Below, piece after piece: positions 40,013 through 59,892 of a stretch of DNA of 64,000 nt; position 1 is the stretch's first letter, and each line of letters starts with the position of its first letter. Below the pieces are notes generated by a model. It saw nothing but the letters and a program-made list of their open reading frames with translations. It was not told the origin of the DNA and did no database searches. Position numbers and translations under genes: made by a program. The stretch comes from Macrostomum lignano (taxonomy: Eukaryota): assembly GCA_002269645.1 (NCBI GenBank), contig NIVC01000362.1:496001-560000 (forward strand), in the 5' to 3' direction.

Positions 40013-40076
40013 AGTAGTATTATTAAATTACACGCACCCCACATTTTTACATGTAAAAATGAATATAGTCCCCACC
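40013..40076 (+). repeat. Left terminal inverted repeat
   Basis: agtagtattattaaattacacgcaccccacatttttacatgtaaaaatgaatatagtccccacc matches the reverse complement of 61057-61120 at 60 of 64 positions. Confidence 0.92.
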
Positions 40077-40330
40077 TACACTCGAACTGTAATACGCCTC
40101 CGTCAGTTCGAGCTAACGAACGAAACGCAACTCGCCCAAGCCGGCGTTCGATAAGGTACAAATCTTAGCTTTCTTATCTTAATACGACACACTAACCAAC
40201 ACTAGCGTTCTCCCAAAAGAAATATTGAATTCAAAGTCCAATTCTTCCTTAGCCTTGGCCATTTATTTCTGCAAAGTATATTTGACTGAATTCGCCGCAA
40301 GTCCATACGCATTAAAAACGAGTAAGCAAA

Positions 40331-40875
40331 TTACCGCAATCTAATACGCAGATAGTTCATCGCGAAAGAACGCAAACGATTATAACAGCGCTTAAACAGA
40401 TTCTCGGCGCCACCACCACTAATCATGCTCGCTAGAAAATCCTTCAAACCACCACCACGATGCAGTTTAAAGTATAAATAAAACGAAATCCATATACCAC
40501 AGTGCAGACTTGTTGGTTCTTGAATAGCAAAACGCGAATATTCCCAATTTCCCCCTCCACAATTCCGTATAAACCACCGACGTATTAACTCACATGGATT
40601 TAACCCAAGGAATCGAAATACTCTCCCTTCCTAGAGCCCCTCCTACCCAACCTAAAACCCCCCACCCATAACAAAACCCAATGAGAACCCGGCAAATTTG
40701 AAGTATCGGTATTCACGATCAGAAAATAATGCCTTCTGTCTCTCGGGATTCGCGGGATACTACTCAACAAATCGACAGGAAAAATACCCAAAAAACAAAC
40801 GTCTTTAAAACCGTTACATAGAATAATCACAACACGTTGCAAGAACAAGTTCGTTACACCTTCGCCTCGCCTCAT
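40331..40875 (-). CDS. Adenain-like cysteine protease (about 181 aa; one frameshift near 40602)
   Basis: GIFPVD...IVNTDTSNLPGSHWV (catalytic His)...EYFDSLG. Adding one T continues LNPCELIRRWF...IQEPTSLHCGIW (Gln/Cys)...RIRLR*. The ATG overlaps the MCP stop (ATGA). Confidence 0.92.
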
Positions 40876-42194
40876 TTCCAAGCGGTTCCTGGCACAACGT
40901 CCCGCAGTTCGGTAATCTGTAGTTGCTTGTCGAAAACACCACCGAAAATAACGTTATAGACCTCCGCTGTAGCCGTTCCAAAACGCATCTCCAGTCGGAC
41001 ATTCCCTTCCTTATACAATTGTACCGTCGGCGCAACTCCCCCGTCAGATCCTAACGAATACGCGAGTATCGTATACCCTCCGTTGTAGTCCGCCATCGAG
41101 AACCCCAAATCCCGTCCTTGTAAATACAAACCCAGTTGTTGACGCAGAGTTGTATACTCCTTTGCACAATCCCCTGTGAAGTCGAATTGACTAGGCCGTG
41201 TCGGTACCGCCTCACCATTTACGTAAACTCCAACGCTGATCAAATTCGCATGCACGAAATTGAACGGATTTGTCGCCAGACTTCCATTAAATGCAGTATT
41301 TCCAACGACTACCACCAGCAAAAGACGTGGCACTCCGCTCGGAAACAGATTTTCGTGCGTATGGCTTAACGACCCTTGCGGTATTGTGAACGTACCCAAT
41401 GATAAACTGCGATGAGGGTACAAGGCATTATGGGTCTTCAAACCATGTGCATGGGCTCCAATCACACTGGCAGATGGCTGAACATACCGCAAACGAAGCT
41501 CCGCACTCTGAATCTCAACCTCGTAATCCTTTAACACTGCCTCACCAATCTGTGCGGCACTTAACACGAATTTGCTCTTTGCCGGTAGTAACTTTATCCG
41601 CAAAGGCGTCTTTGACAACAAATACCGTGGCTGACGAAATAGATCCAAAAACAAAGGCCCTGAAACCGTACAAGTTCTCCCACCCGCAATTAGTGCCTGT
41701 CGCTTCACTCGCCCAACGTTCGCGACGCCGGTGGCATTCATTTTTCCAGCAGTGTCCTTGTAAAATCCCCAGGCAGCCAATCCGCCGTCTTGTCCCAACC
41801 GACCATACTCCAAAAGCGTCAGAAGCATGGCCTTGTACGGATACATGAAGCTCCCGCCTTCAACGACCGTATCTCCTATCCGCAATTGCACGTCTTCGAA
41901 CAGCGTACTCACCACCATGTTATTCAGACAGACATAGTTTTTCGCAGCATCCACAGCCCCTCCACTCTCGTCTACTACTCGGATTCCAACAGTTAGAACT
42001 GTTTCTTGTAAGTCGACATACAAATCTCCAGCCGGTACAATCTCGAACTCAATTGGCCCTCCTTGCGTAATCCCATGTTGAGGCTGTATATCCGTGTAGC
42101 GACTGTCCACAACACTGAATTGTACTGGTGGGCTGTCAAATAACGTCAACTCACTTTTCAATCCAGCGACGTCAGGCCCCAACAACTGATCCAT
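40872..42194 (-). CDS. Major capsid protein (double jelly-roll type), 440 aa, intact
   Basis: N-terminal KSELTLFDSPPVQFSV...GGPIEFEI...YVDLQET and later GSLATNPFNF...VYVNGEAVP resemble Maverick MCPs. Size and position also fit. Confidence 0.92.
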   Translation of the reverse strand: MDQLLGPDVAGLKSELTLFDSPPVQFSVVDSRYTDIQPQHGITQGGPIEFEIVPAGDLYVDLQETVLTVGIRVVDESGGAVDAAKNYVCLNNMVVSTLFEDVQLRIGDTVVEGGSFMYPYKAMLLTLLEYGRLGQDGGLAAWGFYKDTAGKMNATGVANVGRVKRQALIAGGRTCTVSGPLFLDLFRQPRYLLSKTPLRIKLLPAKSKFVLSAAQIGEAVLKDYEVEIQSAELRLRYVQPSASVIGAHAHGLKTHNALYPHRSLSLGTFTIPQGSLSHTHENLFPSGVPRLLLVVVVGNTAFNGSLATNPFNFVHANLISVGVYVNGEAVPTRPSQFDFTGDCAKEYTTLRQQLGLYLQGRDLGFSMADYNGGYTILAYSLGSDGGVAPTVQLYKEGNVRLEMRFGTATAEVYNVIFGGVFDKQLQITELRDVVPGTAWK

Positions 42195-42587
42195 CTACTT
42201 GCCAAACAAACTGAATAACTTTTTAGTCGTGGCGCTCGGCTTTTTCTTTTTACGTATGCGTCTAACTCGCCGACCACGTCCAACCTGTTTTTTTACCGCA
42301 GGTGTCTTTCTGCTTATACCCTTTTTCCTGACTCGTCGTCGCTTAACCACAACTGGTCCATCAGTAGTCGTCAATCTACGTTTCTTACCCATTCCAATCG
42401 TCTTCTTCAGGAAGCTTAAACCGCCCTCTACTAAATCCTTCCGAGCTCTACGTAGCACGGGATATATCACTCTCTCTGTTAAATTCGTCAAATATCCGTA
42501 TCCCTCGTACACAGGTATCGAACTCGACCCACCACCCGTCCGCGGCTGTGTACTAGGTCCCGAATAGAATGCAAAAACCGGATCCAT
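42195..42587 (-). CDS. Small basic core/DNA-condensing protein, 130 aa
   Basis: MDPVFAFYSG...GGG...PVYEGYG N-terminus and an Arg/Lys-rich C-half. Its stop abuts the MCP ATG. Confidence 0.75.
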   Translation of the reverse strand: MDPVFAFYSGPSTQPRTGGGSSSIPVYEGYGYLTNLTERVIYPVLRRARKDLVEGGLSFLKKTIGMGKKRRLTTTDGPVVVKRRRVRKKGISRKTPAVKKQVGRGRRVRRIRKKKKPSATTKKLFSLFGK

Positions 42588-42616
42588 GAATGCCGAGCGA
42601 AACTATACGTCAAAAT

Positions 42617-43759
42617 CTACTTAAAGTGCTTTGCTAATACCCGTGCTGTCTCTTTATCTAGATCTGATTCAGCCAACCACTGACCTCTCGAGTCGGGCAT
42701 TCCCTCCCACTTGACAAAATATCGCCTGCCCTTCTTCCCCATACGCTCAACACGCTCGACCCGATCAATTTTAACAACCTCCGCCTCAGGTTCAGCCACT
42801 AGAAGCAGTTCACCTTGGTTGAATCGACCCTCCAACACTGTCGAATCGTCCTCGGGGTCTAACAGACCATAAGACGGTGGCTTCGTAGAATACACCCGAT
42901 GAATTCGATACACCCTATTACTCCATGTCGTTGTGTAACCCTTCTCAAATTTTCCCTTTTGACGTGCAAGTCGTACCCAATCACCAACCTTAAAACGCGG
43001 AATAGGCCTCACATCGTCGCCATACAACTCCTCCCACACCATGCCCTGCAGATGGCCATCCGCACTCACATCAATGGGGCTACGACCATTTAAACTGCGG
43101 TGTGGAGAGTTATTCAACGCAAGCTCTAATTTTGGTAGAACATCAAACCACCGGGCCAGATTTCGAGTCCGAAATAGTCGTAGTAATCGCTCCTTCACGG
43201 TGCGTATCAATCGCTCAGCCATGCTCGCTTTGTAGGTACTCTGACTTACGAAAAATCGTACGCCCTCACGCTTTAACATCGACTGAGTTTCTCGCCCAAG
43301 AAACTCTCGACCAGCATCGCCTTGTAAGTACAGCGGTTTAAACCCCGTGCGGAATATCTCATACAATACACGGCTCACCTCACTTGGCTTCTTCGTCTTC
43401 AAAGCTCTCAAGCGAGCCAACCTAGTGAAACAGTCGACTAATACGAGGATGTACCTGTAACCACGGTTTTCGTCCTGATATTGCGGTAAGTCTGCCAAAT
43501 CAATCTGCATTTGAAATTTTGCAACGGGCGGTAGTTGTATTTTCGGAGTTTTGAACTTCCGATTCGACTTCTGGAACAGATGTATCTCCTTCGTCCTACG
43601 CACCCACTTGTCAACAACAGCCTTGGCTTTTTTTTGCGTTAACTCCGGATACCTCCGCCTCAAAACTCGTATAAATTGCTTCTTATTACCACTAAACGCA
43701 GTAGGGCGTTCCAAGTCGAAAAATGCCACGTCCAGAAACTTAAAAAAAATCGCTTCCAT
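42617..43759 (-). CDS. int: Retroviral-type (rve) DDE integrase with C-terminal chromodomain, 380 aa, intact
   Basis: QIDLAD, LQGDAGREF and ASMAERLIRTVK (D,D,E). The C-terminal YFVKWEGMPDSRGQWL is chromo-like. Confidence 0.95.
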   Translation of the reverse strand: MEAIFFKFLDVAFFDLERPTAFSGNKKQFIRVLRRRYPELTQKKAKAVVDKWVRRTKEIHLFQKSNRKFKTPKIQLPPVAKFQMQIDLADLPQYQDENRGYRYILVLVDCFTRLARLRALKTKKPSEVSRVLYEIFRTGFKPLYLQGDAGREFLGRETQSMLKREGVRFFVSQSTYKASMAERLIRTVKERLLRLFRTRNLARWFDVLPKLELALNNSPHRSLNGRSPIDVSADGHLQGMVWEELYGDDVRPIPRFKVGDWVRLARQKGKFEKGYTTTWSNRVYRIHRVYSTKPPSYGLLDPEDDSTVLEGRFNQGELLLVAEPEAEVVKIDRVERVERMGKKGRRYFVKWEGMPDSRGQWLAESDLDKETARVLAKHFK

Positions 43760-43786
43760 CCTCCGTATTAGCGGCTCTCCAAATTT

Positions 43787-43960
43787 TTATGATGCAGAAC
43801 CCACATTAGTATTGCAACAGTTAAAACTTGCCTTTACCGTTACGTCTCCGTCAGGCTCCTCTGCGCGCAGTACGCGTTCCAATAAATTCGCAATGCAACC
43901 ACCCTCCCCCAAAAAACAAATTCTAAAACGCTTGTACAACCACTGAAACACATTCGCCAT
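43787..43960 (-). CDS. Small hypothetical protein, 57 aa (below the ORF-track cutoff)
   Basis: ATG-to-TAA ORF MANVFQWLYKRFRICFLGEGGCIANLLERVLRAEEPDGDVTVKASFNCCNTNVGSAS fills the gap between ORF223 and the integrase in the same orientation. Confidence 0.55.
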   Translation of the reverse strand: MANVFQWLYKRFRICFLGEGGCIANLLERVLRAEEPDGDVTVKASFNCCNTNVGSAS

Positions 43961-44003
43961 CCCCAGACTCGATATATTTCACGTAAAATACAATGCTTAT
44001 ACA

Positions 44004-44675
44004 TTACGCTAGAGTCTCATAATCTTCCAAGGCTTGCAAGTCCCCACCGCGCGACTCTGACTCGGGAGTAGGTTCCATGGGTGTTCCTTCCTCCAGAACG
44101 TTTCGCATATGCCGCCCTAGCATCGACGGTGGAATTGATTCCCTGCGAAGCAGTGAGACGAAACGTTCCAGCTCTGCCGCCGGAGGCGATCTCCCTCGTT
44201 TCAATGGTTGGTCGCGAGTGACATACTCTACTAGCTCGTCAAAATCTCCTCCTCCAATCTCATTCGCAGCACCTGTCAGCCTTGCCTTCAGACGGTCGAA
44301 ACGTGGTTGTACATTACGGGGGAGTCGCCTCCCCTTCTCGGTCTCACCCTCCGTCGGGCCATCATGACCAACGGATGAGCGAACCTCTGGCGGGGTCTCA
44401 CCATTCTTATTGTACAGAGACCGCGTTTGTAGCAACCGACTCTCCAAATCAGTTCTTTCCAACTGTGCGGTTGTAGGCTGCAGACTAGTCGATTCACCAA
44501 TCTCCCGGTCAAGCCTATTCATCTCACCTTGCATTTCAACAATATTCTTACCCAAAGCGTCCACAGGTCCGTCCAATACTCCCGTCCTTCGCTCATCTTT
44601 CGACGTACATTCCAAATAAGCCTGCAACGGCAGCAAAACCATTCGCTGAAGAGTTCCTCCTCTATTGACTGGCAT
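44004..44675 (-). CDS. Maverick hypothetical protein, 223 aa
   Basis: Intact ATG ORF co-oriented in the core block. The N-terminal RMVLLP motif resembles a recurrent Maverick ORF. Confidence 0.7.
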   Translation of the reverse strand: MPVNRGGTLQRMVLLPLQAYLECTSKDERRTGVLDGPVDALGKNIVEMQGEMNRLDREIGESTSLQPTTAQLERTDLESRLLQTRSLYNKNGETPPEVRSSVGHDGPTEGETEKGRRLPRNVQPRFDRLKARLTGAANEIGGGDFDELVEYVTRDQPLKRGRSPPAAELERFVSLLRRESIPPSMLGRHMRNVLEEGTPMEPTPESESRGGDLQALEDYETLA

Positions 44676-44676
44676 A

Positions 44677-46073
44677 TTACCTACGCCGTCCGGCCCGAAT
44701 TGCTCGAACTAGATTTGCCGTCCCCGCAGCCGTACCGGCCAATCCCGATGTAATCCCTAGAGCCGTGCCAATGGCTGGCAAAGCAGAAATTATCGGAGCA
44801 AGAAACGGCAGGAAACCACCACGCTGTACCAAAATTTCCTTCCTGGCTCTAGTTGATTTTTTCTCCTTCAACAATTCTTGTATCGGTTTCGATAGCGTTC
44901 TAAACGTTTCTTGTCACACGACTTTAACGGCACGCGTCCTTTTACGATATTCAAAAGAAACTCAACCAGGCAACGCACCTCGCCCGGACTTAAACTTCGC
45001 AGAAATCGCTTGCGCTGGTCCAATCCCGAAGCCTCGCGACAACTTGCAATAGGAAGGCACACTGGGACAATGATCGCGCGCTTTGTACGCTCTTTTCTGT
45101 CAGCCCGGTCATTGTCTATCATGCCTTCTACTGATTCCGACNNNNNNNNNNNNNNNNNNNNNNNNNNNNNNNNNNNNNNNNNNNNNNNNNNNNNNNNNNN
45201 NNNNNNNNNNNNNNNNNNNNNNNNNNNNNNNNNNNNNNNNNNNNNNNNNNNNNNNNNNNNNNNNNNNNNNNNNNNNNNNNNNNNNNNNNNNNNNNNNNNN
45301 NNNNNNNNNNNNNNNNNNNNNNNNNNNNNNNNNNNNNNNNNNNNNNNNNNNNNNNNNNNNNNNNNNNNNNNNNNNNNNNNNNNNNNNNNNNNNNNNNNNN
45401 NNNNNNNNNNNNNNNNNNNNNNNNNNNNNNNNNNNNNNNNNNNNNNNNNNNNNNNNNNNNNNNNNNNNNNNNNNNNNNNNNNNNNNNNNNNNNNNNNNNN
45501 NNNNNNNNNNNNNNNNNNNNNNNNNNNNNNNNNNNNNNNNNNNNNNNNNNNNNNNNNNNNNNNNNNNNNNNNNNNNNNNNNNNNNNNNNNNNNNNNNNNN
45601 NNNNNNNNNNNNNNNNNNNNNNNNNNNNNNNNNNNNNNNNNNNNNNNNNNNNNNNNNNNNNNNNNNNNNNNNNNNNNNNNNNNNNNNNNNNNNNNNNNNN
45701 NNNNNNNNNNNNNNNNNNNNNNNNNNNNNNNNNNNNNNNNNNNNNNNNNNNNNNNNNNNNNNNNNNNNNNNNNNNNNNNNNNNNNNNNNNNNNNNNNNNN
45801 NNNNNNNNNNNNNNNNNNNNNNNNNNNNNNNNNNNNNNNNNNNNNNNNNNNNNNNNNNNNNNNNNNNNNNNNNNNNNNNNNNNNNNNNNNNNNNNNNNNN
45901 NNNNNNNNNNNNNNNNNNNNNNNNNNNNNNNNNNNNNNNNNNNNNNNNNNNNNNNNNNNNNNNNNTCGCTTGCGCTGGTCCAATCCCCGAAGCCTCGCGA
46001 CAACTTGCAATAGGAAGGCACACTGGGACAATGATCGCGCGCTTTGTACGCTCTTTTCTGTCAGCCCGGTCAT
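44677..46073 (-). CDS. pX/mu-like (GGFLP) Maverick protein, about 145 aa, reconstructed across the gap (46073-45966 joined to 45005-44677, one extra base near 44882)
   Basis: Joined reading: MTGLTEKSVQ...LRGLDQRKR|FLRSLSPGEVRCLVEFLLNIVKGRVPL...RNRIQELLKEKKSTRARKEILVQRGGFLPFLAPIISALPAIG. The GGFLPxLxPII motif resembles the adenovirus pX precursor. Confidence 0.8.
45142..45965. other. Assembly gap (824 N) flanked by a duplicated 136/137-bp overlap
   Basis: 45006-45141 equals 45966-46102 except for one extra C in caatcccc. Confidence 0.97.
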
Positions 46074-46131
46074 TGTCTATCATGCCTTCTACTGATTCCG
46101 ACTGTACTTGCTTATAATCAATCGTCTCGTA

Positions 46132-47073
46132 CCTGAAGTGCAGCACAGCAATCACATGGCTTCCATCAGGGAAAATTCAAATCTTGCCCCGTTGGTCGGC
46201 CAGACGAATGGAGATCTCATTAATGTAGCTCCGATTTGTCCGCAAGTAATATGGCGTCTGCAAAGCATTTCCGTCTCGTCGAAATATTCCGTTCTTTTCC
46301 TGGCGAAACTCAACCACGCGAAGTAGCGGAACCTGACGACTTCCAACCATTTGATATTCAACAATGTCGCTATAGCAGTACATGTAAACACTCCGCAGTA
46401 TCGCTTCGGGTATTCTATCCAAATAGACCTTCGTCAGACCCCACGCACGATTTTTCCTCCAATACTCAACCACCTCCTTTAACGTATCCCCGGCAGGCCG
46501 TATTACCTGCGTACTCTTCATCCAGACGGCGAAACCAGGTTCCAAGACAGCACGAAAATCGTACCAATTCGAATCTAATATACCTGCCTCGTCCATTGCA
46601 TTCGTTATGTTCGTCCAGGATTCACCCGCCGCATCCGCGGGTTGGGTGCGTCCGTCGTGAGCTGTCAAACCCCACGTACTGAAACCAAAGCATGTCAAAA
46701 AACTCCTTGGCAGTTCAATGCCCATACGTCGGCTGCCGGAATTTCGCAAATACCAAACATATGCTTTAGTAGCCGGCGTCCACGACAAGTGTACCTCCAA
46801 ATCATCGGCCTGCCAGACCTTACCCAAGAAGACTTCATCTGTTTTCTCGATAATTTTCTCGATGTTGCAATAATATATCACCTTCACCTCTTCTCGAAGT
46901 TCCGCCGAGGAAGTTTCCGCCGGCGGGCTGTTACATAGCAAATCCACCAAAGCCACTTCATACTTCCCAGCCGGCGCTAGATTCAATGGTGTAGTTAGCC
47001 GCACCCGAAACTCGTGCGCAGAATTGGTCGGATAACTACGATCGTTTGACGGAATAAACACAAAGAAACTCAT
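46132..47073 (-). CDS. Minor capsid protein (penton, single jelly-roll type)
   Basis: MSFFVFIPSN...YEVALVDL N-terminus and YSDIVEYQMVGSRQVPLLR C-terminal motif. An in-frame TGA at 46177 precedes VIAVLHFR and is removed by swapping two T-run lengths (giving GKILNFPDG). The true stop is uncertain. Confidence 0.88.
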
Positions 47074-47103
47074 AATCTCACCCCATAAGCTGTAGCCGCT
47101 TCC

Positions 47104-47817
47104 TCAAAACTTGCTTATAATATCCTCCTCCTTGATAGTCTCCGGACGCATATAAACAACCTGGTGAGTGTCACTCGGAAAGACATTCGTCCGTATGCGT
47201 ATCATATCCGGCGTGTCCTGTCGTAAGTCTATGAAGAGATAGCTGAAGGCCTTGTCACCCGTCGCGTCGTCATAAGCCTGCACCAGAAATCTACTAGCTC
47301 GGGGGTACATCTGCCGACCCAAATGTTCAACGGCGCTACGATCCCTAACATTTCGGCTTAAACAGATATAACTCGTCGATAAACTTCTTTTTCTTGCCTC
47401 AGGATCCGCAGGGTCAAACAAATTTTGGCACAAATAAAGACAAGTCAATGGCGTATGATGAGCCAATTTGGTGAATACAGCGGTAAAAGCGCGTTGCTTT
47501 GCAACTTCACCCTGCAAATCATCAACAACGACTAAATCGTGCGGCTTGAATCTAGCCAACAACTGATCGGGGAATCCCTGTACGAAGTGACATTCGCCAC
47601 TTCCACCCAATGTCCAACATTCTCGAACTCGTTTTTCCTCAGACGAATGTAACTCTGTACCGTGACACCAAATTAGACGCCTTGGTACTACTCGAAACAG
47701 ACCCAAGCGCTCCCTTACCAGTCGAAGCACCCATTCAGTCTTTCCCGAATTCGAAGGACCTGCGACGATAAACGTCGAGTCATGAGCAAATCGCAAGTCG
47801 AATGTACGCCTGTCCAT
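47104..47817 (-). CDS. A32/FtsK-like genome packaging ATPase
   Basis: GPSNSGKT (Walker A), LVVVDDL (Walker B), TKLAHHTPLTCLYLCQNLF. First ATG at 47817. Confidence 0.94.
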   Translation of the reverse strand: MDRRTFDLRFAHDSTFIVAGPSNSGKTEWVLRLVRERLGLFRVVPRRLIWCHGTELHSSEEKRVRECWTLGGSGECHFVQGFPDQLLARFKPHDLVVVDDLQGEVAKQRAFTAVFTKLAHHTPLTCLYLCQNLFDPADPEARKRSLSTSYICLSRNVRDRSAVEHLGRQMYPRASRFLVQAYDDATGDKAFSYLFIDLRQDTPDMIRIRTNVFPSDTHQVVYMRPETIKEEDIISKF

Positions 47818-47818
47818 T

Positions 47819-48239
47819 CTAGGCACCCAAACGCTGTTTTACGTTCATAACACGGGATACCAGTTTTGCGGCCAAACGTTCCCCCACTTAGTTGTAGGAT
47901 CCGCAGCAATCTCTCGAGCTCCTGCTTCGAGTTGTTGATCGGCCTTTGAACGCTCTGCCACGTCCGAGTGCTTCTCGTATGCCAGGTCGTGTAAGAGACA
48001 CAATTTATCGAGCCGATTCTTCCCAGTATCGCCCCGCGCTAAACGTTCTCTCAATCTGGTCCCGGGGCCGCAGAATTGGTAACCCCCGGCAAATGAAGCT
48101 CCCCTGGGAGATGATTTATTACCCAATTAACAATACCAAACCCCGTCTGACCTCGACGACGAGATTTCTTAGCTCGAGTCGACTTTGCTGCTGTCGAACG
48201 CACTCGCTTCTTCTTCTTCTGTCGGCCTTGTGTTCCCAT
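47819..48239 (-). CDS. Parvovirus-VP1-like phospholipase A2 domain protein, about 140 aa (frameshifts at 48083-48087 and 47881-47885)
   Basis: Reconstructed: basic N-terminus, then ELHLPGGYQFCGPGT...NRLDKLCLLHDLAY...ADQQL...WGERLAAKLVSRVMNVKQRLGA*. Has the Ca-loop Y/FxGPG and the catalytic HD. Confidence 0.88.
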
Positions 48240-48385
48240 CCCACTTAATTGTACCAAAAGAACCAATTGCATTTGCTTATACACACAGTGGTTAAATCCA
48301 CGAGCAGTATATTGTATTAATAATCAAAGTGACAAGCCGCCACCAATTCCCACCACCGACCGACGGGCTCCGGGCGTGACCAGCA

Positions 48386-48867
48386 TCACATGTTAGTGCT
48401 GCCCATGCCACCCGTCTCGCGAACCGCCACCGGCTCCGGTTGTCGGTGCCACACCCCCGGCAGCTGGCCCTCGCGAGCTCGACCGACTTCTACCGGGGGC
48501 GTGACGCAGCGCTCCAGAATCAATTGGGCCACGCTGGTGGCACACGACAGATGAACTTTCTCATCTGACGTGTTGTGCAGGATCACGCGGAGTTCCCCGG
48601 TATAGTCCGGGTCAACCACGCCACCCTGCACATTTAGGCCTCGGTTGGCCCAACTGGACCGGCTCGCTATCCGACCATAGGTGCCCGGCGCAGCATCACC
48701 CGGAGGCCGGTGCGAATGATGGCCGTGTCAAAGGCCTCCACAGTGCGGTCTTCGCACGTGGCTAGGTCGTAGCCCACCGACCCGGCCGTAGCTCGCCGAG
48801 GCATCACTGCCCCGGCATCCGTGAGCACTACGCGCAGCGGGACCGTCGAGCAAGAGTCGGAGCTCAT
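48386..48867 (-). CDS. dut: dUTPase, about 160 aa (one frameshift near 48690; a possible upstream start at 49002)
   Basis: AGSVGYDL (motif 1), GTYGRIASRSS (motif 2), GVVDPDYTGE (motif 3), AQLI (motif 4), RETGGMGST (motif 5). Confidence 0.93.
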
Positions 48868-49127
48868 AGTGGCTGCGGGATCATAGTTCATCTTATGCTT
48901 AGGAGGTTCTTCGTCCTCTAAAATAAGTCTAGTACTACCCGCGTAATCCTCGTCCCAATCAAAAAAACTAAGCCTAGTACTAATCCCCTGCACTGCCATC
49001 ATAGGCCTAGAAAAACGAAGAGAAAGAAGGAAAGGCGGATTCTTGCATATACATTCGATAATTGCGCGCATATATTGTGTGCAGAAAAAGCATAAACAGA
49101 CAGAAAACAGAGAGCGGAGAGAACAAG

Positions 49128-52100
49128 TCAAGTCAACCGCCAATGACCAAATGGGAGGGATGAGTAGGGATCGAGCCAGGCTCGCTTCGTGTCGAAGAAG
49201 CTAAGCGCCTGCTTGCGCTGCTCAAGAAGATAAATCTTCTGTCGTCGCGAAGTAATCGTCCGCATCGTTACATGCTCCAAAACTCGATCCTTCAACACAC
49301 TCAAAAATACATTGTGCTTCATACCTCTTACAATCGACTTCGACACGCCCTTGCAACGCACAATCTGACAGAGGCTTTCCTTTGCATACACCATTGAATA
49401 GTTTTTCGGGCGTAGAAATGCAAACTCCAACAGTGTACAACCGGAAACTTCATCTTTCCAGGCCATTAACTTCCCTTTATACTTTGTTGTATAAAGCGGA
49501 TGAGAAGGTGGATAATTACTAGTGTCTAACACACCGCACTCCACCAAGTCTTTAAACAATGTCTCCTGAGGACTCGTCTCCGGGTCGGCCATAACCAATG
49601 CCAGGATCAAACTATCCGTATCTCCACCAAGCACGCGGGCAGAAGCAAGCGACCTATGGCATTGAATCCTTGAATAGAAAAACTCGTAGACAAATGTTTT
49701 CGCAAGGTCCAGAATAGCGCTACCAATCAGAATTGGCTTGTTTAGCAATACTCGACGAGGAGTCAAACTCACGCCCGCTAGACGATCTGTATACAGAATC
49801 ACGTCCATAAACTCCTCTTTAGCGACATACGTTTCCAACTTCTCGGCAGTAGTACACATGCGATAGCTGAGTCGGTCTCGAACTCGCTGCAGAAACTTGC
49901 CGTACACAGCATTGTTCAATAGTTTAAAGAAATCTCGATCGAAATCGCTAGTCGCCTCAGACCGCCGACGAATATTATGTTCAATATATTCCTGTAGAAT
50001 AGGACCTTCTACGAATTCGAGAACACGATTAACCCGCGTCACGCGCATGCCTAACTCGAGGTAAAGACGCAATGCTCGATGATGTACAATGTACCCTGTT
50101 TTATGCGTAACAGAGCCAATTAGTTTCCTTGTCGGAGAAGTGAATCGTTTTACGTCCTCGTATACCTCCGCATTCCTCTTCCTGGGATCAAGCTGGCGTT
50201 GCAGACAAACCCAATCCTGCTTCATATGCTCGGTTAAATAGGCACTATCAATTCTTTCATGGCCAATAGCCAGAGGTAGATCGGCAGTTGAGTCGTGCAA
50301 AAACTTTGGGTAGTAAAGATCGACATTCAATAACGCCCCTCGTCCATTCGAGCAATAGCTAGACAACCAAGCCAAAAACTTGCTCGACTTGTTCGGATTT
50401 TCCAACTCAGCTGCCTCATCATCAACTGATAGATTTTCAATCACTTCACGGGGCAACCAACGATAGGCCTTATACGGCAGCGCCTGCACCATACAACTGG
50501 CATAAAGAGAATTAGCATCAAGGTAGGCCAAGTGAGTGCCATACGGTGCATTCCGCCGTAGTTCTCTTAAATTGTCGTCGTCGTCATCCAGCTGCCGACG
50601 ACATTCTTCTACCATTGGATTATTTGCCGTAGTAAGATGGCGAGTGCCAAAACTGAACCCACCTCGAATCGAAGCTTCAACCTCGGAGTACATACGAGCG
50701 TCTGTAAACAACTCGATCGGCTTCTTCACCTTCAACAGACACGCAGCCAGACTATACATTGGCGATCCGAGAAAATGACACACATCCAAACCGTATTCTC
50801 GAATTGCAGTCCGACGAAAACTCTCAAATACGTCGCATAACAGTAGTACATCCAACAGTAAATACGCAGTCAGATAGTCACGCAAATTGGCACAATCAAA
50901 CTCTTGCCAACTCTGCTGAGCGCGTGTGTACTCCTCCTTAGAACACTCTTGCCGGGTCATTGCGTCGTAAAACAAATCTCGCGATGGCAGTTCAGTCACA
51001 CTGTCCAACTTCTCTTCAGAGTCCAAGTAACAATACGGAAACACTCCCTTCTGCTGCAGAGTAGACAGTTGGAGTTTAGGATAAACATTCAGCAAATCTC
51101 GACAGTGTACCAATTGTTCCTGCGTCAAACGGTTTGCCAGACTAGCTAGACTTGTCGACAAGTACGCAAACGTGTCCTTGAAGCAGATTTCAAACCAAAC
51201 AAAATTCTTCTTCTTCTGCTTTTGTTGCTGCGGCCGTTGACTGCCAACCAGCAGCGGTACCTTGAACTTTAATGAAAACGTCTTAAACCGTTCCCTAGAC
51301 TCGGGAAGAACGTGCAGTTGAACGTCGTCTTCTCCACTAAACACATTGTACACCTCACGAACAATTATTTTACCGTCATATCCTCGAAGATTGTGCAGGT
51401 AGACGATAATTCGATAGCGCTGCAGGGCAAGTTTTCGATTGCACGACATGCAAGCCATTCCACGTGGAAGACCACTCAAATGACAATGATCCCAGACTTG
51501 AGACTCGTCAGCGGAAAACTCGCGACGACAGACGTAGCATCGATCTGCGCTAGGACGCTGACCTAGATACTTTCTAAGCATTGGTCTATAAGTCATCTTG
51601 CTAGTCGCATTAGTTACTTCGAATGCAAGCTCGCGCAGAGCCAAGAGAAACCTGCCAATACAATCTGTTGTGCCAGGCGTAGAATAAAACAACTTGCATG
51701 GAGTATTGTATCTGCTCAACAAATCCTCCCTCGTTACACTATCCAAATCCGGATCGACAACCAAACGAAAGGCCACACAAACGGGCACGTGAATTTGTAA
51801 AACACGGCTGTTAGCCGTAGGCACTGGCAGGCCCTTGACGAGGCCCCTCGATGCCTTTTCAACAGGTACAAGTAGACTCTCAATATCAGCATAAACCAAA
51901 TACAGCGGCGGCAGTCGAGTCTCGTAGGCTGAAAAAGACAAAATGCTTTGCCCTCCTCTGGTAAAACCTCCTCCGTGACTGGCTTTGGCGTTCGAATGAA
52001 GCCGCCGCCGCCGCCGCCGCCTGGTTGCTCCTCCGTCGTCTGGCCACACACGTGTTCTTTCAAGATATAATCCCAAGACGTGGTGTGAATAAAGCTCGCC

Positions 52101-53574
52101 AGACATTCAGGACAATAGCGCCGGCGTTTAGCACGAGAACTCAACAGCCTATCCAGATTTAGCACCGCCATGTAGTGTCCATACTTGAATTCTGCGTAAG
52201 GTGGTATGAACAGACAATTGACTGGCGCAAGGTCACCAGTGGAACGACGAAAATTAAAAAACAGCACGGCAGTATTCGTGGCATGACTCCAGACAAACAC
52301 ACGCATCAGTCTAATTCGAGGGTTCAGCCGGCAAAACTTTCTGTAGCTCCCAATTGAGTGACGAGTCACTCCGGCGCGCGTAAATCGAAAGCTTTTCAGC
52401 CAAGGCCTGTAAGACGCCTTTCGCCTTTTACGGGCTTGCCCTTCGACCTGTGAGGAAAAGACGCTCGACACGACAGCATACATAAAACAATCATGCTGAT
52501 CTGCTCGGTGCGGGCGTAGAAACAAAACCGCTCCCGGCATACGACCAACAGCCAGTGGAACGCGGAATGGAACGGAACGGGTCGGAGCGGATTCTGTTGG
52601 ACCGCCGCCCGCCTGCGCGCCCGCCGCCGCCGCCGCCACGCCCGCCGCCACCACCACCGCCGCCCCGCCACCCGCTCCCCACACGTCCTGCTGCTGCTGC
52701 CGACGACTGCTAGTGTTCGACTGTAGTAGTAGATATTTTCGGCGGAATATGCACAGCATAACGTCGACCTTGACAACGCCGAGGAACTTCCAGTTACTAC
52801 CTCGGGACTGAAAGTTGTCTAATTTAGCTACCAGATCGTTTGTTGCCTCGCTGTACCATTGGTTGAAAACGTCCTCAGAGAGAAGAAGTACACGGCGGCC
52901 GGCGGCTGGAGCATTCGCATCGAAGGAGACCATAACGACTTTGGAATTGAAGAAGGGCGCGATTACTTCTACCTCTTCGTTGTGGGGGGATTCACCAGCA
53001 GCCGTGTCATTGGCGGGGGGATAACGGTACGATACATTTTTACATTAAGATGTATACATGTACGGAGTAAACAGTCCGCAGATCCGAGAGAGTTAAAAAG
53101 ACGAAAAAGTGGAACTTGCAGTTGTGGAAGTAACTCGCTGGGTGGTTCGGTCTCGCCATCGTCCTCGTCCAGCAGAGGCGTGAACGTCAGAAAGTTCGCC
53201 CGACCTCGGTGTGCGGACTCGGTATGTTGTACCGACCAGCCTGGTGGAGTGTCCTCTTCGATTAGCCGACGCACTGGTTCTCGAAGTAAAAGTTGGTCTG
53301 GTTGATAGCACGAGCCATTGTGCGAGTGCCCATGGAGGGCGGCTTGACTGTTGAATCTCTGCCGGCACACGGGGCATCTGATTTGTTTCGTCGTCGTCGT
53401 CGACGGCTGGAATGGTGTTGGCGATTGTTGGCGACGGGGTGGTTGTGATAATCGCCTAAATAGTTTGCTCGGTGGTAAAAATAAGGAAGGAATGCACAGC
53501 CTTAAGTTTGGTGGACAGTCCAAAAATGTCCTCCGCCGCGTGGTTAAACTGTATTTTACTTTGCAGAGATACAA
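49128..53574 (-). CDS. pPolB: Protein-primed family B DNA polymerase with N-terminal terminal-protein region, about 1,480 aa (frameshifts near 51948 and 53017; 5' start unresolved)
   Basis: Exonuclease motifs YADIES and HNLRGYD, EndoVII-like DHCHLSG...CMSCN insert, and polymerase motifs YLDANSLY, KLLNNAVYGK and GDTDS. Upstream frames carry RGSNW, DCFMYAV, HYMAVLNLDRLL, CPECL and a CPVC..H..H zinc finger. Confidence 0.95.
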
Positions 53575-53867
53575 TTATGTAGACAATTTGAATATTTAGG
53601 AATGAACAGCAGGCTAGTAAGTAGTAGGTCGTTGACGGTGGTTGAAAGAATAGAATCGTATAACTTAGTCAATGGTAGTGTTTTTAGGGGTCTGAAGCAG
53701 TTCGAATGGATCATCATGATAAACAAAAATCGTTGGGTACGCATGGGAATTTTACCTTCGGGTAGTAATAGCGGTAGGTGGTGTTTTTTCAACTTGGTAG
53801 GGGCTCGGTTGAATTTAGGTGTTTATTACTACAGCAGAAAATCGTTGTTGTTAATATCAAGTGCATG

Positions 53868-55250
53868 TCAGAGCTCACGACGAATGATGCCGCCAACAAG
53901 ATGGGCTAGATCGGTCGTAGATGTATCCGATCTGATTAGAATTTCGTGTACGTTCGAGTAGTCCTGGTAGTGTCGTGTAAACGCCTCGTCTAGCGATCGT
54001 AGATAGTCCAGGGAGATGCCAGTCTCCTCACCGCTGCGTCCGCGCTGCGCGATGCGTTGAATGGCCAACTCCGGGTCAATGCGCAGGTAAATAAGCGTCG
54101 TGTTCGCGCCGGTAAAGGGTACCCCAGTCGCTTCGAGGACGTCTAGTTGGCGCTGAGCAATCGCCCATTCGGTGTCAGACAGCGAGCCTTGACGGTGTAG
54201 TACGTCTTGGAATGCTCGAGCCGACCCGAGGCAGCGGTCGAGGATAACCACCTTGTTGTTGGATTGTTGGTTAACCTCATTCCGGACCTGGGTGGTAACA
54301 CAAGATTGGCAAAAGTAGCTATACCGTGCGTGTCTTTCGACATTGGTTGTACATGCAGTAGGAGCTATACGAAAGGAATTGCTAGATACTATAGTACCAC
54401 TTACTTTGCTGTCTCTGTCGAGCAAGTCGTGGGAGACGTGCTGTTGGAATGCGACGGCCGGAAGCTCGCCTCGATAGAATGACTGAAGCAGATTTACCGA
54501 GTCCGGGAGGAGCGGGTGTCGCGCGTACTGGTGAACAGGCTCGGGACCGAAGACGGCTTTGTCGGCCCAACCCTCGAGGCGGGAGGTGAGAGCCAGTTCT
54601 CGAAGCAACGTCGACTTCCCGGCACCGATTACGCCCTCCAGGAGAAAAATGCGAGACTGGCTCGTCATATTGGCTAGAATTGGAACAAATTCTGGTTTCG
54701 GAGCGGCTTCCTGACACAATTGTTTAACAATGTTGATCATTTCTAAAATCTGGCTAGTAGTCTTTGCACCTATTATAACGATCTTAAGGGAATGAAAAAT
54801 ATTGCACACCGTCCTATTGAGTGGAGCAGTACTACGGAGGGTGATGGCTTGTGGGAATATCTCCGCGTCGTAATACAGCCGAGCTGTGTGAAACGGCCCG
54901 ATAAAGTTTTTCAGGGTCGAAAATTTGAGTCCAGGATAGTGGAGCAGACCAACGGTTGTAGAGCTGATTATACGAATCGATGTTTTGATTAGTTTAATTA
55001 CTTTAAGGTGTATGAAATTCAGGGCACGTAGAAGTTGGACTCGGGATCTACAGCCATAAAGCGTGAGTAGTCCTCCGGGGTAGAACTGACATGAAAATTG
55101 GGGCAGTCCGATACGAAGCATACTTGGCTTGGCGGAGTATAATTTGGAGGGGATTCCCGCCTGGCCTAGACGTTTTTTTAGCCTATTTAAATCTAACTTT
55201 TCTCCTGGAGGGGTACTCGTTCTGGCTTGCACTATTAGTAGGACCAATCT
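53868..55250 (-). CDS. TBP-like domain (about residues 1-180) fused in one ORF to a deoxynucleoside kinase; predicted 117-bp intron 54288-54404; 5' end unresolved
   Basis: Two TBP-like half repeats: KLDLNRL...CQFYPGGLLTLYGCRS and YDAEIFPQ...CNIFHSLKIVIIGAK. Kinase motifs: EGVIGAGKST, GPEP, AFQQ, ILDR, RIAQRGRSGEE. No stop between the domains. Confidence 0.85.
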   Translation of the reverse strand, partial: RLVLLIVQARTSTPPGEKLDLNRLKKRLGQAGIPSKLYSAKPSMLRIGLPQFSCQFYPGGLLTLYGCRSRVQLLRALNFIHLKVIKLIKTSIRIISSTTVGLLHYPGLKFSTLKNFIGPFHTARLYYDAEIFPQAITLRSTAPLNRTVCNIFHSLKIVIIGAKTTSQILEMINIVKQLCQEAAPKPEFVPILANMTSQSRIFLLEGVIGAGKSTLLRELALTSRLEGWADKAVFGPEPVHQYARHPLLPDSVNLLQSFYRGELPAVAFQQHVSHDLLDRDSKVSGTIVSSNSFRIAPTACTTNVERHARYSYFCQSCVTTQVRNEVNQQSNNKVVILDRCLGSARAFQDVLHRQGSLSDTEWAIAQRQLDVLEATGVPFTGANTTLIYLRIDPELAIQRIAQRGRSGEETGISLDYLRSLDEAFTRHYQDYSNVHEILIRSDTSTTDLAHLVGGIIRREL

Positions 55251-55389
55251 CTGAAAAGAATAAATACGAGAAAAAATTCTGTATAACGGTTAAGATTTTT
55301 ATATATTTCTGGGTGATGCGTTTCCGTTTACGGAGAATGGTAGTTAGAGTTATAGGTATAGCTTCCCGCCACCAAGTGAACGCTAACGG

Positions 55390-56481
55390 TCACTGTGCGA
55401 AGACTTCATCATCTTCGCTGTCCATGGGCTCCGTCGAGGCCCCCGAGTCCACGTCCCCTAGCGCTGGGTTGGAGGCTGCAGCTTTACCCGCTTTGGGGAC
55501 AGTATTGGTAACACCGCTTACAAGATCTTTGACGGGAGTCACCGTGATCCAGTCTTCAGCTGCTGCTGCTGTTGTTGCTGCTCCAGTCGTCTTGGTGGGG
55601 CGTTTGGCGGGGCTGCGACGAGTTGGGCCTTGTCGTCGTTTTCGTCCGCTAACTGGTTTCACTAGCGTCGTCGTAGTTGTTGACTCTTCTTCCTCAGTTG
55701 CGGCGGTGGCGGCGATTGGAGTCGACGTAGTTGGGATGTGAAAACGCAAAGCTTGGGCTAGCATCGGCAGGTGTTTCGGGTCGTCGTCGACCAGTGTCAG
55801 CGAGCGAAGGGCGAGGCCGAGGCGCCATGTCTTGCTTTCCTTCTGACGATAAAGACTTGTGAGCTGAACGGAGAGATGGTAAAGACCGCTAAGTCCTCTC
55901 AGCTCGCTTGTGTCAACTTCACGCGGGTGTTGATTAGGCAGTGCTCGAAAGGTGAAACATGGTAGTGTAGGTTTTATGGCAATCCACTGGGCAAAGCCCA
56001 GGTCGCCTTCCTCGGTGGCGCGGGAGATGCGAAGCAGCGGCATCGGATCGCCCATTTGCTTTAGTTTGATAGCGATGCCTCTTTCGACTTGTCTAGCGAG
56101 AGCAAGGGGATTGAAGAGCAGTAAGAATTCATGGTCTAGTGAGTATGCACATGTAACAAGGATGGCGAATTCTTAAACTTACTTGATGCATTGTAGGAAT
56201 TTGCTGCAAAAGGCCGATGATGACAGTCCGATGGCCACCGCCTCACGGTCTCCGGCTAAAAACTCTCCGGCATCCTGTATTTGGATACCACGAAGAATCT
56301 CGACTGGGGTCGTGGTTTGAATCACTAGTGGGGACCTCCTGTCGACTTTGGGGGGCGTCCACGTTACGCTACGGAAGGTGCAGCTTGCTGTAGGAGCGTT
56401 GGGTTCGCCTAGGTGGAGATTACCAACGTCGGCTTGGATAGCACCCGGTTGGAATACGGATTCGGCAGCGAAACCAGCCAT
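55390..56481 (-). CDS. Two-exon protein (56481-56183 + 56092-55390), about 333 aa, possible OB-fold ssDNA-binding protein with acidic tail
   Basis: Two same-frame ORFs separated by taa-gtt-taa. Donor GTAAGT at 56182 and pyrimidine tract plus TAG acceptor at 56093 splice in frame (CIK|QVERG). Good Kozak context. Ends MDSEDDEVFAQ. The SSB function is inference. Confidence 0.6.
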
Positions 56482-56571
56482 GGTGTTGATCTTGCCTTGC
56501 TCGGAACGCGTGTTTGAAGTGCCTTCTATTTGGAGTCTTAATGAATATTTTATTTCGTTTAGGGGTACCTA

Positions 56572-56578
56572 TTTTATA
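56572..56578 (-). promoter_or_regulatory. Candidate TATA box upstream of the putative SSB gene
   Basis: TATAAAA on the minus strand about 90 nt upstream of the ATG at 56481. Confidence 0.4.
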
Positions 56579-57191
56579 GAGTTGTTTTTAAGGGGGGGCG
56601 TGGGATCGTTGAAGATTGTAGTTGGTCTTCTGGCTGGTGAATTCCCAGGGACTTTAGACATTTTGTTAAAGAGTTTAGGGTTGGTGAGATGCGATGCATA
56701 TATACGTGCGTTAAGAGATAATTTTGGCATTATAGTAGTGCGTGCAAATCGGTGAATTGATTTGACATGCTATTTAAGTTCACTAATTTGGTGTTCACTA
56801 GTCGAATAGGAAATTGATCTCACTCGATGCGTTCGGGTTTATAATAGTACGGGTTATAGTAGGCTGGGGTCGGTGAATTGACTGCATGCATTTCATGGGC
56901 GTAAATTGCGTGCTCATTGCTGGATTGATAAAAATTTGGAAATGCCTGCACCCTAGTTTGGGTCACGGGTGACGTTTTCCCATAGAGGTCGGTTTGTAGA
57001 AAGATACCGAAAGGGGGGTTTTACTGGCTTCGGCATTGAGTGGTTGGTTGACAGCGCGGTGCTATCTATATGCTATATGCCGATAACGGAAATTGTGCAA
57101 TCCCCCGCGTGGGTTGAGTTTCATATGAAGGGGAGATCTAGGTCATTGAGTTAGAGAGGAGACTTGGAACTGTTCGAACGATAGATTGCGA

Positions 57192-58929
57192 ATGACAATG
57201 GCCGAGGCTCAGGACGGATCGCGGGAAGAGTATTGGAAGGCACAGGAGGGATACTTTGAAGAATTGGAACGCAAATTCGCTTTCGTGGACTACGGTAGCG
57301 ATCGACTCCGACGAGTGTCGCCCTTGAGTAGACCGTCTGGTAAGTATAGTTTTTTATGGCTGCCACTCCTCTTGTATGGCACCGTATTTTGATAGGGCAT
57401 CATATACCGACTTCAGTAGACGGGCAGCAAGACCTCCGTCCGGTCGCGGTAGTTCCGCCTAGTGTGCGTGGCCGCGAGGATCCCTATGACGGGGAAATTA
57501 ATATAGGGAGGAATACGTTCCCACCAAGGACAGAGGTATGTAATATGCATTCTGAGTTCGATTGCTTTGTGGTAGTATAACTTACTATGCCTTCATCTAC
57601 TGGTAGGATTACTTCAACGCAAGGACGGTAGCTTTGGAGGAGCTAAGTGAGGAGCGACCCGAAGTTCGCTATCGTGAAGCGGGTTACGACGTAAGATTGA
57701 TTTTTAGTTAGTAGTGCCTGAGCTTGTACTTGACGAGTTCATTTTGCCTTTTTTAGCAACTATGCATGAGTGACCGAGTAGTTTTGCAGCACCAGTGGGC
57801 GACGGCAGTTTGTACGCGAACGCATGAACTGGTGCCGGAGATGGTGGCTCGGGGAAGGGAGGTACGAGACAATATTCGTATGCTTTTCTTATCACATATT
57901 GCATTAATAAATAAAGAATTTCCCATTCTCATTTTAGGAGTTTTTAGCCATGGTGAGTGGAGATGTGCTTTTTGGTGTGGTATAATTCACTCGTCCGTAT
58001 GAAAATAAATTTACTTGTCTGTTCTTTATTCTTGAATCGTAGATTCGCGGACGTGGGCGTCGGACTCGAAACGAGGTATGGATATTGTATTTTAATTGAG
58101 TGTGATCCTAGTTCAATATTGTAGCCCAGTTGTATTTTCTGCTGTTGCATATTCCAGGCTGCGTGTGTTTCGTCCAGCCCAACACAGCTTACAATGGTCA
58201 GTATTCGCTTGGCATTGATTAAACATTGAAGATATAAAGGCTGGAATCTTATTTGACATTTCAGGCGAATTGCGCGATCGGAGAAGGGCGAGCTCCCGGA
58301 CCACCGCAGCCATGTGTTCCGGTTAGTGATACATCGAACCCCATGCTCTTTATTTTGGCGGGATGTACATAAGTAGCTCGGTTTGGGAGGTGCTCTTCAC
58401 GTGCCGGTTTAAGATGGAGTTACGAGGTTTTATGGTAGTAGAATTCGTGTTATTTAGTGTGAGACGGGACCGTTAATGCATGAACCAGTTCTACTTTATG
58501 CTGCCACGCATTCAAGACTGCATGGCATTGATTAAAACTTGAGGGTTAAAACAGTTGAAATCTTATTTTTTAAATTGCAGACAAATTTCGTGTTCGGACG
58601 GGGGCGGACTCCTGGACCGCCGCAACCTTCCACGGTTGGTGTTACGTAGAAGAATATGCTCTTCTTTGTAGGGTGTTCACAGTCATATCGGGTGGGGGGG
58701 GGCAGGTTGGTAGTGGTTTAGGGTGAAATATGCAAGTCTATGGTGGTAGAGTTTGTGTTACAACAAAGAGTTATTTATACAATCAAATTTTAGATTCCGA
58801 AGCCGCCATCCGGAAGTGGATTCCCTGGTGGTGGTAGGGTTAGTAAATTTTATATTGATTGCAGCGTAGTAAATTGACCTGGTAAATGTATGTCATCTTC
58901 CTTGGTTTCAGGATGCGGACCTGTCGTAG
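57192..58929 (+). CDS. 11-exon gene of unknown function, about 245 aa; exons 57192-57339, 57396-57535, 57607-57690, 57757-57861, 57938-57952, 58043-58075, 58158-58196, 58265-58321, 58581-58634, 58794-58838, 58912-58929
   Basis: Ten consecutive GT...YAG introns (56, 71, 66, 76, 90, 82, 68, 259, 159, 73 bp) join into one stop-free frame. Nine are phase 0. The last three exons are less certain. Confidence 0.72.
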
Positions 58930-59892
58930 GCATTCGGAACTCGGCGTGTGGGTTGGTTGACTCCGTCGCCGCCGTCGGCTTGTTTATGTGGACTGTAGGG
59001 GACTTGTATTTGTAAATGTTTCGTATGCGACTTTTATTTAGTGAAGGCTTGGACATATGTGTCTATTTATTCTTTTGGATTCGCTCTGTGTGCAGAATCG
59101 TACATGTAAATACAGTGTGGCGTAGATCCAAGGCCTTCGTTCTATGTAAGGGCTTGCCAGCGGGGTGTCTGTCTTGTTGTGTCATCGGTGGAAATATAGC
59201 GTTGTTAAAGGATTGGTTTGGATCTTGTTTGTCTTAGGGTTAAAGAGAGGGGTGATAAACTCGGGGTTTGAGTTTTCGGTGGTGTTGTTAGTTCTAGGGC
59301 TTCTGGGGTGGGGGGTCTGTATTATGGGGTCTGGTTTATCTCAAGTGGGGGTGAAGCATGGGGGTGGGAGTCGAATCACCCGGGGGAATCTTAACGCGGC
59401 TATATTTTTTAAATCGCATGTAATTTGCTTTAGTTCTTTAAATTCAACTTTTATTCAATTTTATTTTATTTTACTTGTTAAAAACTTTTAATACAAAAAT
59501 ATACCGGTTTGTCAATGAATGTATTAAAACTTGTAGTGCTAAAATACACGGATTCGATGTTGGTTGAAGTAGCTACTGAAGCCGGCGTTCAATCGAGAGG
59601 GCGGATAAGGTAAACAAAAGTGCAAGATATGCATATGTAGATGCCGCGGAGACGGATGAAAAGTAACAGAAAATATGCGAAAAAGTATAAGTACGAATAT
59701 GAGTGGTTGGTATCGAGGTTTTGAGTTCTATGGGTAAAATATTGAAGCCTAGTGACAGTCCCCCTGGTTCTAATCTGTACTACATAAAAATGGAAAATAT
59801 CCTGATCCTAAAATTGTAGACGTTTCGAGAAGTTTAACAATACAGCATAATAATGTTTGTTAGCAGGTAGGCGAGTACACTTAATGGCGGAT

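Follow-up and report, generated by a model that had tools for sequence, protein, structure and literature searches.

Mavericks and Polinton-like viruses are usually annotated from open reading frames and their genes are held to be intronless, as stated in the accessible parts of two reports (PMC8097293, PMC9356565). One end of such an element in Macrostomum lignano raises the question of whether a gene cut into eleven exons can be a working gene of the element, what its many small exons are for, and where it came from. The window analyzed here is a stretch of 64,000 nucleotides (contig NIVC01000362.1, positions 496,001 to 560,000), and all coordinates refer to it. A sequence-only reading had placed the gene on the plus strand at 57192-58929 inside a viral-type element, and had suggested either a combinatorial micro-exon cassette or a captured host gene.

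The surrounding element is indeed of viral type, a Maverick/Polinton of 21.1 kb (40013..61120) with AGTAGT...ACTACT ends and terminal inverted repeats of ~65 bp (94% identity). It encodes a protein-primed B-family DNA polymerase (49128-52106; PF03175, E 7e-21), a retroviral-like integrase with a chromodomain (42617-43759; rve E 5e-7 at 30.3 bits, just below the 32.6 cut-off), and dUTPase and kinase domains. The major capsid protein frame at 40872-42194 had no Pfam match and 111 homologs, the named ones from coral, sea cucumber, snail and fish, with two labelled capsid protein; it is thus related to the capsids of other Mavericks from animals. A putative packaging ATPase frame (47104-47817), which carries a P-loop-like motif, had no Pfam match, and no adenovirus-like protease was matched among the 16 sequences scanned. 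The polymerase was split over two overlapping minus-strand frames (49128-52933), the larger containing an endonuclease VII domain; frame breaks recurred near the same point in sister families, and could reflect a frameshift, splicing or an assembly error. Genome-wide, at least 97 capsid matches fell into at least four identity classes (100, 75, 65 and 33%), many with open frames, and the host genome thus holds a rich set of Maverick families.

The two flanks of the window copy differ from each other, but both have a counterpart elsewhere, each fitting the flank at the other end of a copy from a different contig. When the six-base flanks were paired across contigs, five near-identical insertions were obtained, and in addition contig C1391 carries an intact duplication; the element has therefore inserted at least five times recently and was recently mobile. 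The target-site duplications at 40013 and 61120 of the window were paired across contigs with C1430, C1431, C297, C4380, C1668 and C356. Such pairing points either to an exchange of near-identical copy ends during assembly or to recombination between copies, and the window element is probably a chimera of two copies joined at an N gap. The 11-exon gene was present at four of the five right ends of these insertions, the C1668 copy being rearranged and lacking it. Its position is the variable right end of the element, on the polymerase side.

The ten donors and the lengths of exons 3-10 given by the sequence-only reading defined exactly one path with all-YAG acceptors, which was 738 nt long (245 aa and a stop), and in which exons 3-10 were all multiples of three as claimed. 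We compared this path with contigs from four of the 24 listed runs (X1, X2, X7 and X15) placed on the region 55200-60700. None of the listed runs is recorded as RNA; the RNA nature of X1, X2 and X7 is a guess, and reliance was placed on GT..AG joints. Run X2 (study P2) joined every intron but intron 3, nine of the ten, with introns 4 and 5 bridged by a single joint that encloses the exon 5 letters, and run X7 (study P4) joined six, intron 3 among them. Run X1 gave a single ambiguous joint near intron 9. In the DNA-like run X15, introns were covered by sequence and no joint was listed (one at a repeat was discarded). All ten introns were therefore joined at GT..AG across X2 and X7 contigs, and none in X15. 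Contigs running through introns were also present in X1 and X7, which indicates that unspliced or DNA-derived sequence is common, and contigs drop rare variants and cannot count isoforms. As for the spliced 11-exon model itself, we regard it as almost certainly correct. That it is the only plus-strand gene agreed with the open reading frame list, while the run contigs bear on this for the 55200-60700 region only.

Two details of the model changed. The only acceptor observed for intron 1 ends the intron at 57416, not 57395, that is 21 nt further downstream (one X2 contig of depth 3.8, whose shorter side spans 22 letters). With this acceptor, the single open frame stood, and its length fell from 245 aa to 238 aa if counted from the first ATG and to 236 aa if counted from the next one. 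In three of the seven other close copies the first ATG (57192) reads TTG, whereas the second is kept in the close copies, which makes 57198 the likelier start (236 aa). Introns 2-10 are in phase 0 and intron 1 is in phase 1, so that the claim of a phase-0 gene held for nine of the ten introns.

The resulting coding sequence of 711 nt runs through exon 1 (57198..57339), exon 2 (57417..57535, previously begun at 57396), exon 3 (57607..57690, 84 nt, X2 and X7 joints) and exon 4 (57757..57861, 105 nt, X7 and X2 joints), then through a 15-nt micro-exon 5 (57938..57952), which was present in a spliced X2 contig. It continues, with joints in the runs throughout, into an RG-rich exon 6 (58043..58075, 33 nt), exon 7 (58158..58196, 39 nt), exon 8 (58265..58321, 57 nt), exon 9 (58581..58634, 54 nt) and exon 10 (58794..58838, 45 nt), and ends in the coding part of exon 11 with the stop (58912..58929), beyond which X2 contig coverage extends to ~59290. 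The introns are 66-259 nt long, eight of them 66-90 nt, and have a GC content of 28-41%, compared with 40-67% in the exons.

The encoded protein falls into two parts. Exons 1-4 encode 150 acidic, charged residues without a Pfam match, of which exon 1 is the best-conserved part and is predicted to be helical (pLDDT 69, single-sequence prediction). Exons 5-11 encode 86 weakly conserved residues that are 42% Arg, Gly and Pro, in line with the tail described earlier. The protein is likely to be largely disordered. A hydropathy scan found no signal peptide or hydrophobic N-terminus (GRAVY -0.76; best 9-residue value in the first 33 aa 0, best 19-residue window 0.73). Self-comparison showed a tandem duplication of a ~313-bp exon-intron unit on the plus strand at 58207..58760 (58207-58452 vs 58520-58760, 67% identical, E 4e-24). 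The duplicated unit includes intron sequence, and exons 8 and 9 belong to its first and second copies; the Arg/Gly/Pro tail grew by duplication of an exon-intron unit.

Splicing was not confined to this gene. Divergent from it on the minus strand lies gene A (55390..56481), with an intron at 56093-56182, its own stop after an acidic tail, and an internal donor at 55521. Both X2 and X7 also join another intron (55251-55521), which starts inside the last exon of gene A and leads in frame into a minus-strand frame of 460 aa with TBP-like and deoxynucleoside kinase parts (53868..55250); with both introns removed, the fusion would be ~750 aa (53868-56481). The first TBP repeat begins at the acceptor, and the frame has its first ATG only 43 codons further on. 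The model of this frame had a mean pLDDT of 50 (low confidence), better over residues 21-80, and a structure search with it gave TBP in all top listed rows, none reaching E 0.001. No homolog of the TBP-like domain was found among 353 candidates, nor any report of a Maverick-borne one in the literature searched. A phase-0 donor lies 129-150 nt before the gene A stop in all four sister copies examined. Among these sisters, the TBP-like frame starts from an in-frame acceptor in C1680, the frames of C424 and C84 open exactly there, and that of C3758 is out of frame; both splice sites are kept in three Maverick families. The evidence for the unspliced form of gene A is its conservation together with one X2 contig, which extends just 30 letters past the donor. 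Taken by itself, the conserved alternative splice of gene A is likely to be real. The Atlas neighbours of gene A were viral DUF2738, DUF5871 and Pox_I3 clusters (0.82-0.87, a lead only), which may represent single-strand DNA-binding proteins.

A two-exon gene convergent with the 11-exon gene occupies the minus strand at 59892..60474 (intron 60023-60091; lower end approximate). It consists of a coiled-coil-like part, a hydrophobic stretch predicted to lie in a membrane and a Ser/Pro/Thr tail, and a similarly built gene was seen on the opposite strand in L054, of the family whose capsid is 75% identical. The window element resembles vertebrate Mavericks in its capsid, integrase, protein-primed polymerase, terminal repeats and 6-bp target duplication. 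However, no introns were reported in 134 intact vertebrate elements in the available part of that study (Barreat and Katzourakis, PMC8097293), whereas 13 introns with RNA joints lie within 5.5 kb here.

A search of the M. lignano genome for the 11-exon gene found eight close copies (95-100% identity) and three at ~70%. Splice-site conservation, proposed earlier as a check, was high: the six close copies of full length retained 118 of 120 splice dinucleotides, and the distant subfamily retained 12 of the 13 that could be compared (p ~0.008 at an intron identity of 76%). Compared with the distant subfamily, exons 1-4 had a dN/dS of 0.27 over 124 codons (Fisher p 3e-8), their differences by codon position were 41/21/58, and the other two frames had no signal of purifying selection. 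Judged by these codon comparisons, exons 1-4 are under purifying selection. Among close copies, by contrast, dN/dS was 0.5-0.7, a shortfall from 1 that did not reach significance (17 synonymous and 37 non-synonymous changes, p 0.15). The dN/dS of exons 5-11 against the distant copies was set aside, as the alignment there is unreliable. Exon 4 changed at 12 of 105 sites among close copies, compared with 56 of 1021 intronic sites (p 0.03, uncorrected for 11 exons), and positive selection on it was non-significant once corrected. Intron interiors diverged less than synonymous sites in both the close and the distant comparisons (close: 0.035-0.04 vs 0.07), which may be due to constraint, CpG effects or alignment bias.

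Lesions were found in six of the eight close copies and in all three distant ones, and some may be assembly errors. Only the window copy and L004 kept all splice sites with neither a stop nor an exonic indel. Of 21 indel events, all nine common to at least two copies were intronic, and five of the 12 found in a single copy were exonic. The three distant copies sit in deleted elements and have a stop in exon 1, a lost donor 3 and out-of-frame lengths of exons 2, 4 and 6. They lack the exon 8-9 region and do not keep the RG motif of exon 6; in this subfamily the length of exon 3 is down by 3 nt and that of exon 7 up by 9 nt, and exon 5 keeps its 15 nt but not its sequence. We read this pattern, from sequence comparison, as that of a protein probably selected in the propagating lineage and decaying in stranded copies. 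Since copies decay after insertion, selection likely acts via propagation of the element, not for the host.

We favor, as reasonably probable, the explanation that this is a spliced accessory gene of a mobile Maverick, likely encoding one main intracellular protein of 236-238 aa that likely regulates the element. That it makes mainly one isoform is likely. Transcription would be by host RNA polymerase II, using a divergent promoter that also serves gene A, and removal of the introns by the host spliceosome would be mostly constitutive. The N-terminal 150 aa, which are conserved, acidic and helical, likely bind a host protein, and the poorly conserved Arg/Gly/Pro tail may be a disordered, possibly RNA-binding appendage. 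A nuclear or RNA-linked regulator is a tentative suggestion for its function, with less than even odds; single-exon queries found no homolog of the 11-exon protein in support of any function. The phase-0 symmetry would be a trace of whole exon units gained and lost in frame over evolution, not a device for making isoforms, as in-frame gain, loss and resizing of units could explain the phase-0 run without regulated skipping.

A different origin for the same gene is that a host gene was captured whole with its introns, like the wasp and krma cargo of nematodes, the parent having been lost, having diverged, or lying in another species. This reading is compatible with the accessory-gene explanation, differing on origin only, and we give it a real but somewhat less than even chance. 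Ten short canonical introns in a coding sequence of this size, unlike the intronless core, speak for capture. So does the content of the slot: two sister families (capsids 75% and 65% identical) keep the gene order of the window element across the core and gene A and carry unrelated spliced genes there, as expected of cargo exchange, so that three families with the same core layout each have a different occupant in the slot. One sister has a predicted two-exon plus-strand gene and the other a predicted two-exon membrane-protein gene. The former (L051:6532-7412 on C1680, with copies L064-L071) has a phase-1 GTAAGT intron after 63 codons, and an overlapping frame of its exon 2 is RG-rich. Homology of the 11-exon gene to the sister slot genes was rejected, the best match being eight Pro-rich residues (z 2.7).

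Against capture, the host paralog looked for at the suggestion of the earlier reading did not appear: single-exon peptide queries of only 35-49 aa had no non-Maverick match in the M. lignano genome or outside, and all own-genome matches were Maverick-linked (exon 1, 11 of 11; exon 2, 8 of 8; exon 4, 11 of 11). Outside searches with single-exon queries of 28-49 aa are weak negatives. In these, exon 1 gave no match among 1.84 billion representatives, none in the Atlas (low recognition), four candidates but no scored hit among longer proteins, and no confirmed pattern match among 78 viral and 597 metagenome ones. Moreover, at least one exon arose by local duplication, and the element's own conserved genes are spliced too, which means that the introns need not stem from capture.

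The closest precedent is the cargo of nematode Mavericks, and intron-bearing Maverick cargo is thus already known. Widen et al. (bioRxiv 10.1101/2022.07.12.499685) describe intron-bearing wasp proteases and krma kinases in a variable region of 2-5 kb. As there, a poorly conserved region with intron-bearing genes lies by a terminal repeat and the core is intronless. However, the nematode cargo genes belong to families of folded enzymes for which many homologs are known, and their region is bounded by the repeat on one side and the integrase on the other, whereas the gene here is an orphan, largely disordered, has ten introns and an internal duplication, and sits at the polymerase-side end with spliced element genes as neighbours. 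Dinoflagellate Maverick-Polinton-like elements likewise carry spliceosomal-type introns, described as introners in the available part of PMC11957031; unlike these, the introns here do not form a repeated mobile family. Their derivation from introners was rejected, as intron similarity was confined to the tandem duplication, bar one weak match (z 2.7). Group I introns are reported in cryptophyte elements (PMC12220804, available part), and the portions seen of PMC10748475 and 10.64898/2026.10.13.758929 contain nothing on spliced genes. The literature searched, which took in few subscription papers and no supplements, contained no account of the present 11-exon gene or of any conserved alternative splice of a Maverick.

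The combinatorial cassette originally proposed, in which symmetric exons are skipped to give a pool of isoforms varying in the tail, as in schistosome micro-exon genes, is unlikely. Eight consecutive exons are symmetric and phase 0. At an assumed background frequency of 0.45-0.5 for phase-0 introns, nine out of ten would have p 0.005-0.01. In the close copy L007 the acceptor of the 15-nt exon 5 is lost, a loss that skipping would tolerate, and exons 3-4 change fast among close copies. However, none of the 13 listed joints in the four runs skips an exon and exon 5 is included, with the proviso that low-level skipping could escape contigs. Two reports (10.1101/2023.06.21.545858; PMC4350168) give the defining features of micro-exon genes as symmetric exons of tiny size, introns that are long, a signal peptide, and exon skipping. 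The gene here shares with them at least ten exons, mostly multiples of three, one of them 15 nt. It differs in that its introns are short, its exons mostly 33-142 nt, no skipping was seen, and it is borne by a mobile element. Two of the nine internal exons are ≤36 nt, six lie within a wider 81-nt limit and eight are symmetric, only 48 of the 711 coding nucleotides lie in exons ≤36 nt, and the tiny-exon, long-intron (0.1-5 kb) and signal-peptide features are absent.

In adenoviruses, the early regions close to the ends of the genome contain spliced genes with accessory and regulatory roles, where alternative donors lead to different C-termini. A comparable arrangement here would combine a switch, conserved across three families, of the SSB-like gene A protein between an acidic tail and a TBP-like (kinase) fusion with a divergent gene built inside the element by exon-unit duplication, whose symmetric tail exons are skipped in some cells to give an isoform repertoire. 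As a whole we consider this improbable, the exon-skipping repertoire being its unlikely part, and the adenovirus comparison is an analogy only. The weakest alternative, that of a decaying or non-coding transcript with real splicing whose protein no longer matters, would fit the lesions, the non-significant dN/dS among close copies and the low divergence of intron interiors, but is very doubtful given the codon-position signal in exons 1-4, an uninterrupted 11-exon frame in two copies that are among the youngest, and the avoidance of exons by indels common to copies.

The 13 introns with RNA joints in this 5.5-kb end hide one whole gene and alter the protein read of two more. Should the same hold widely, current counts of accessory and regulatory genes in animal Mavericks are too low, and seemingly empty ends need re-reading with RNA data. 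The splice of gene A onto the TBP-like frame may matter more than the 11-exon gene. As the element is young, multi-copy and transcribed, the regulation of its genes is directly testable. Just outside the element, a single-exon minus-strand frame (31287-37973) encodes a protein of 2228 aa with SecA-like helicase and OTU-like domains. Further upstream, positions 1-29300 of the window consist of about three tandem units of 9.86 kb at 100% identity, with inverted arms of up to 3.8 kb and internal 252-bp repeats.
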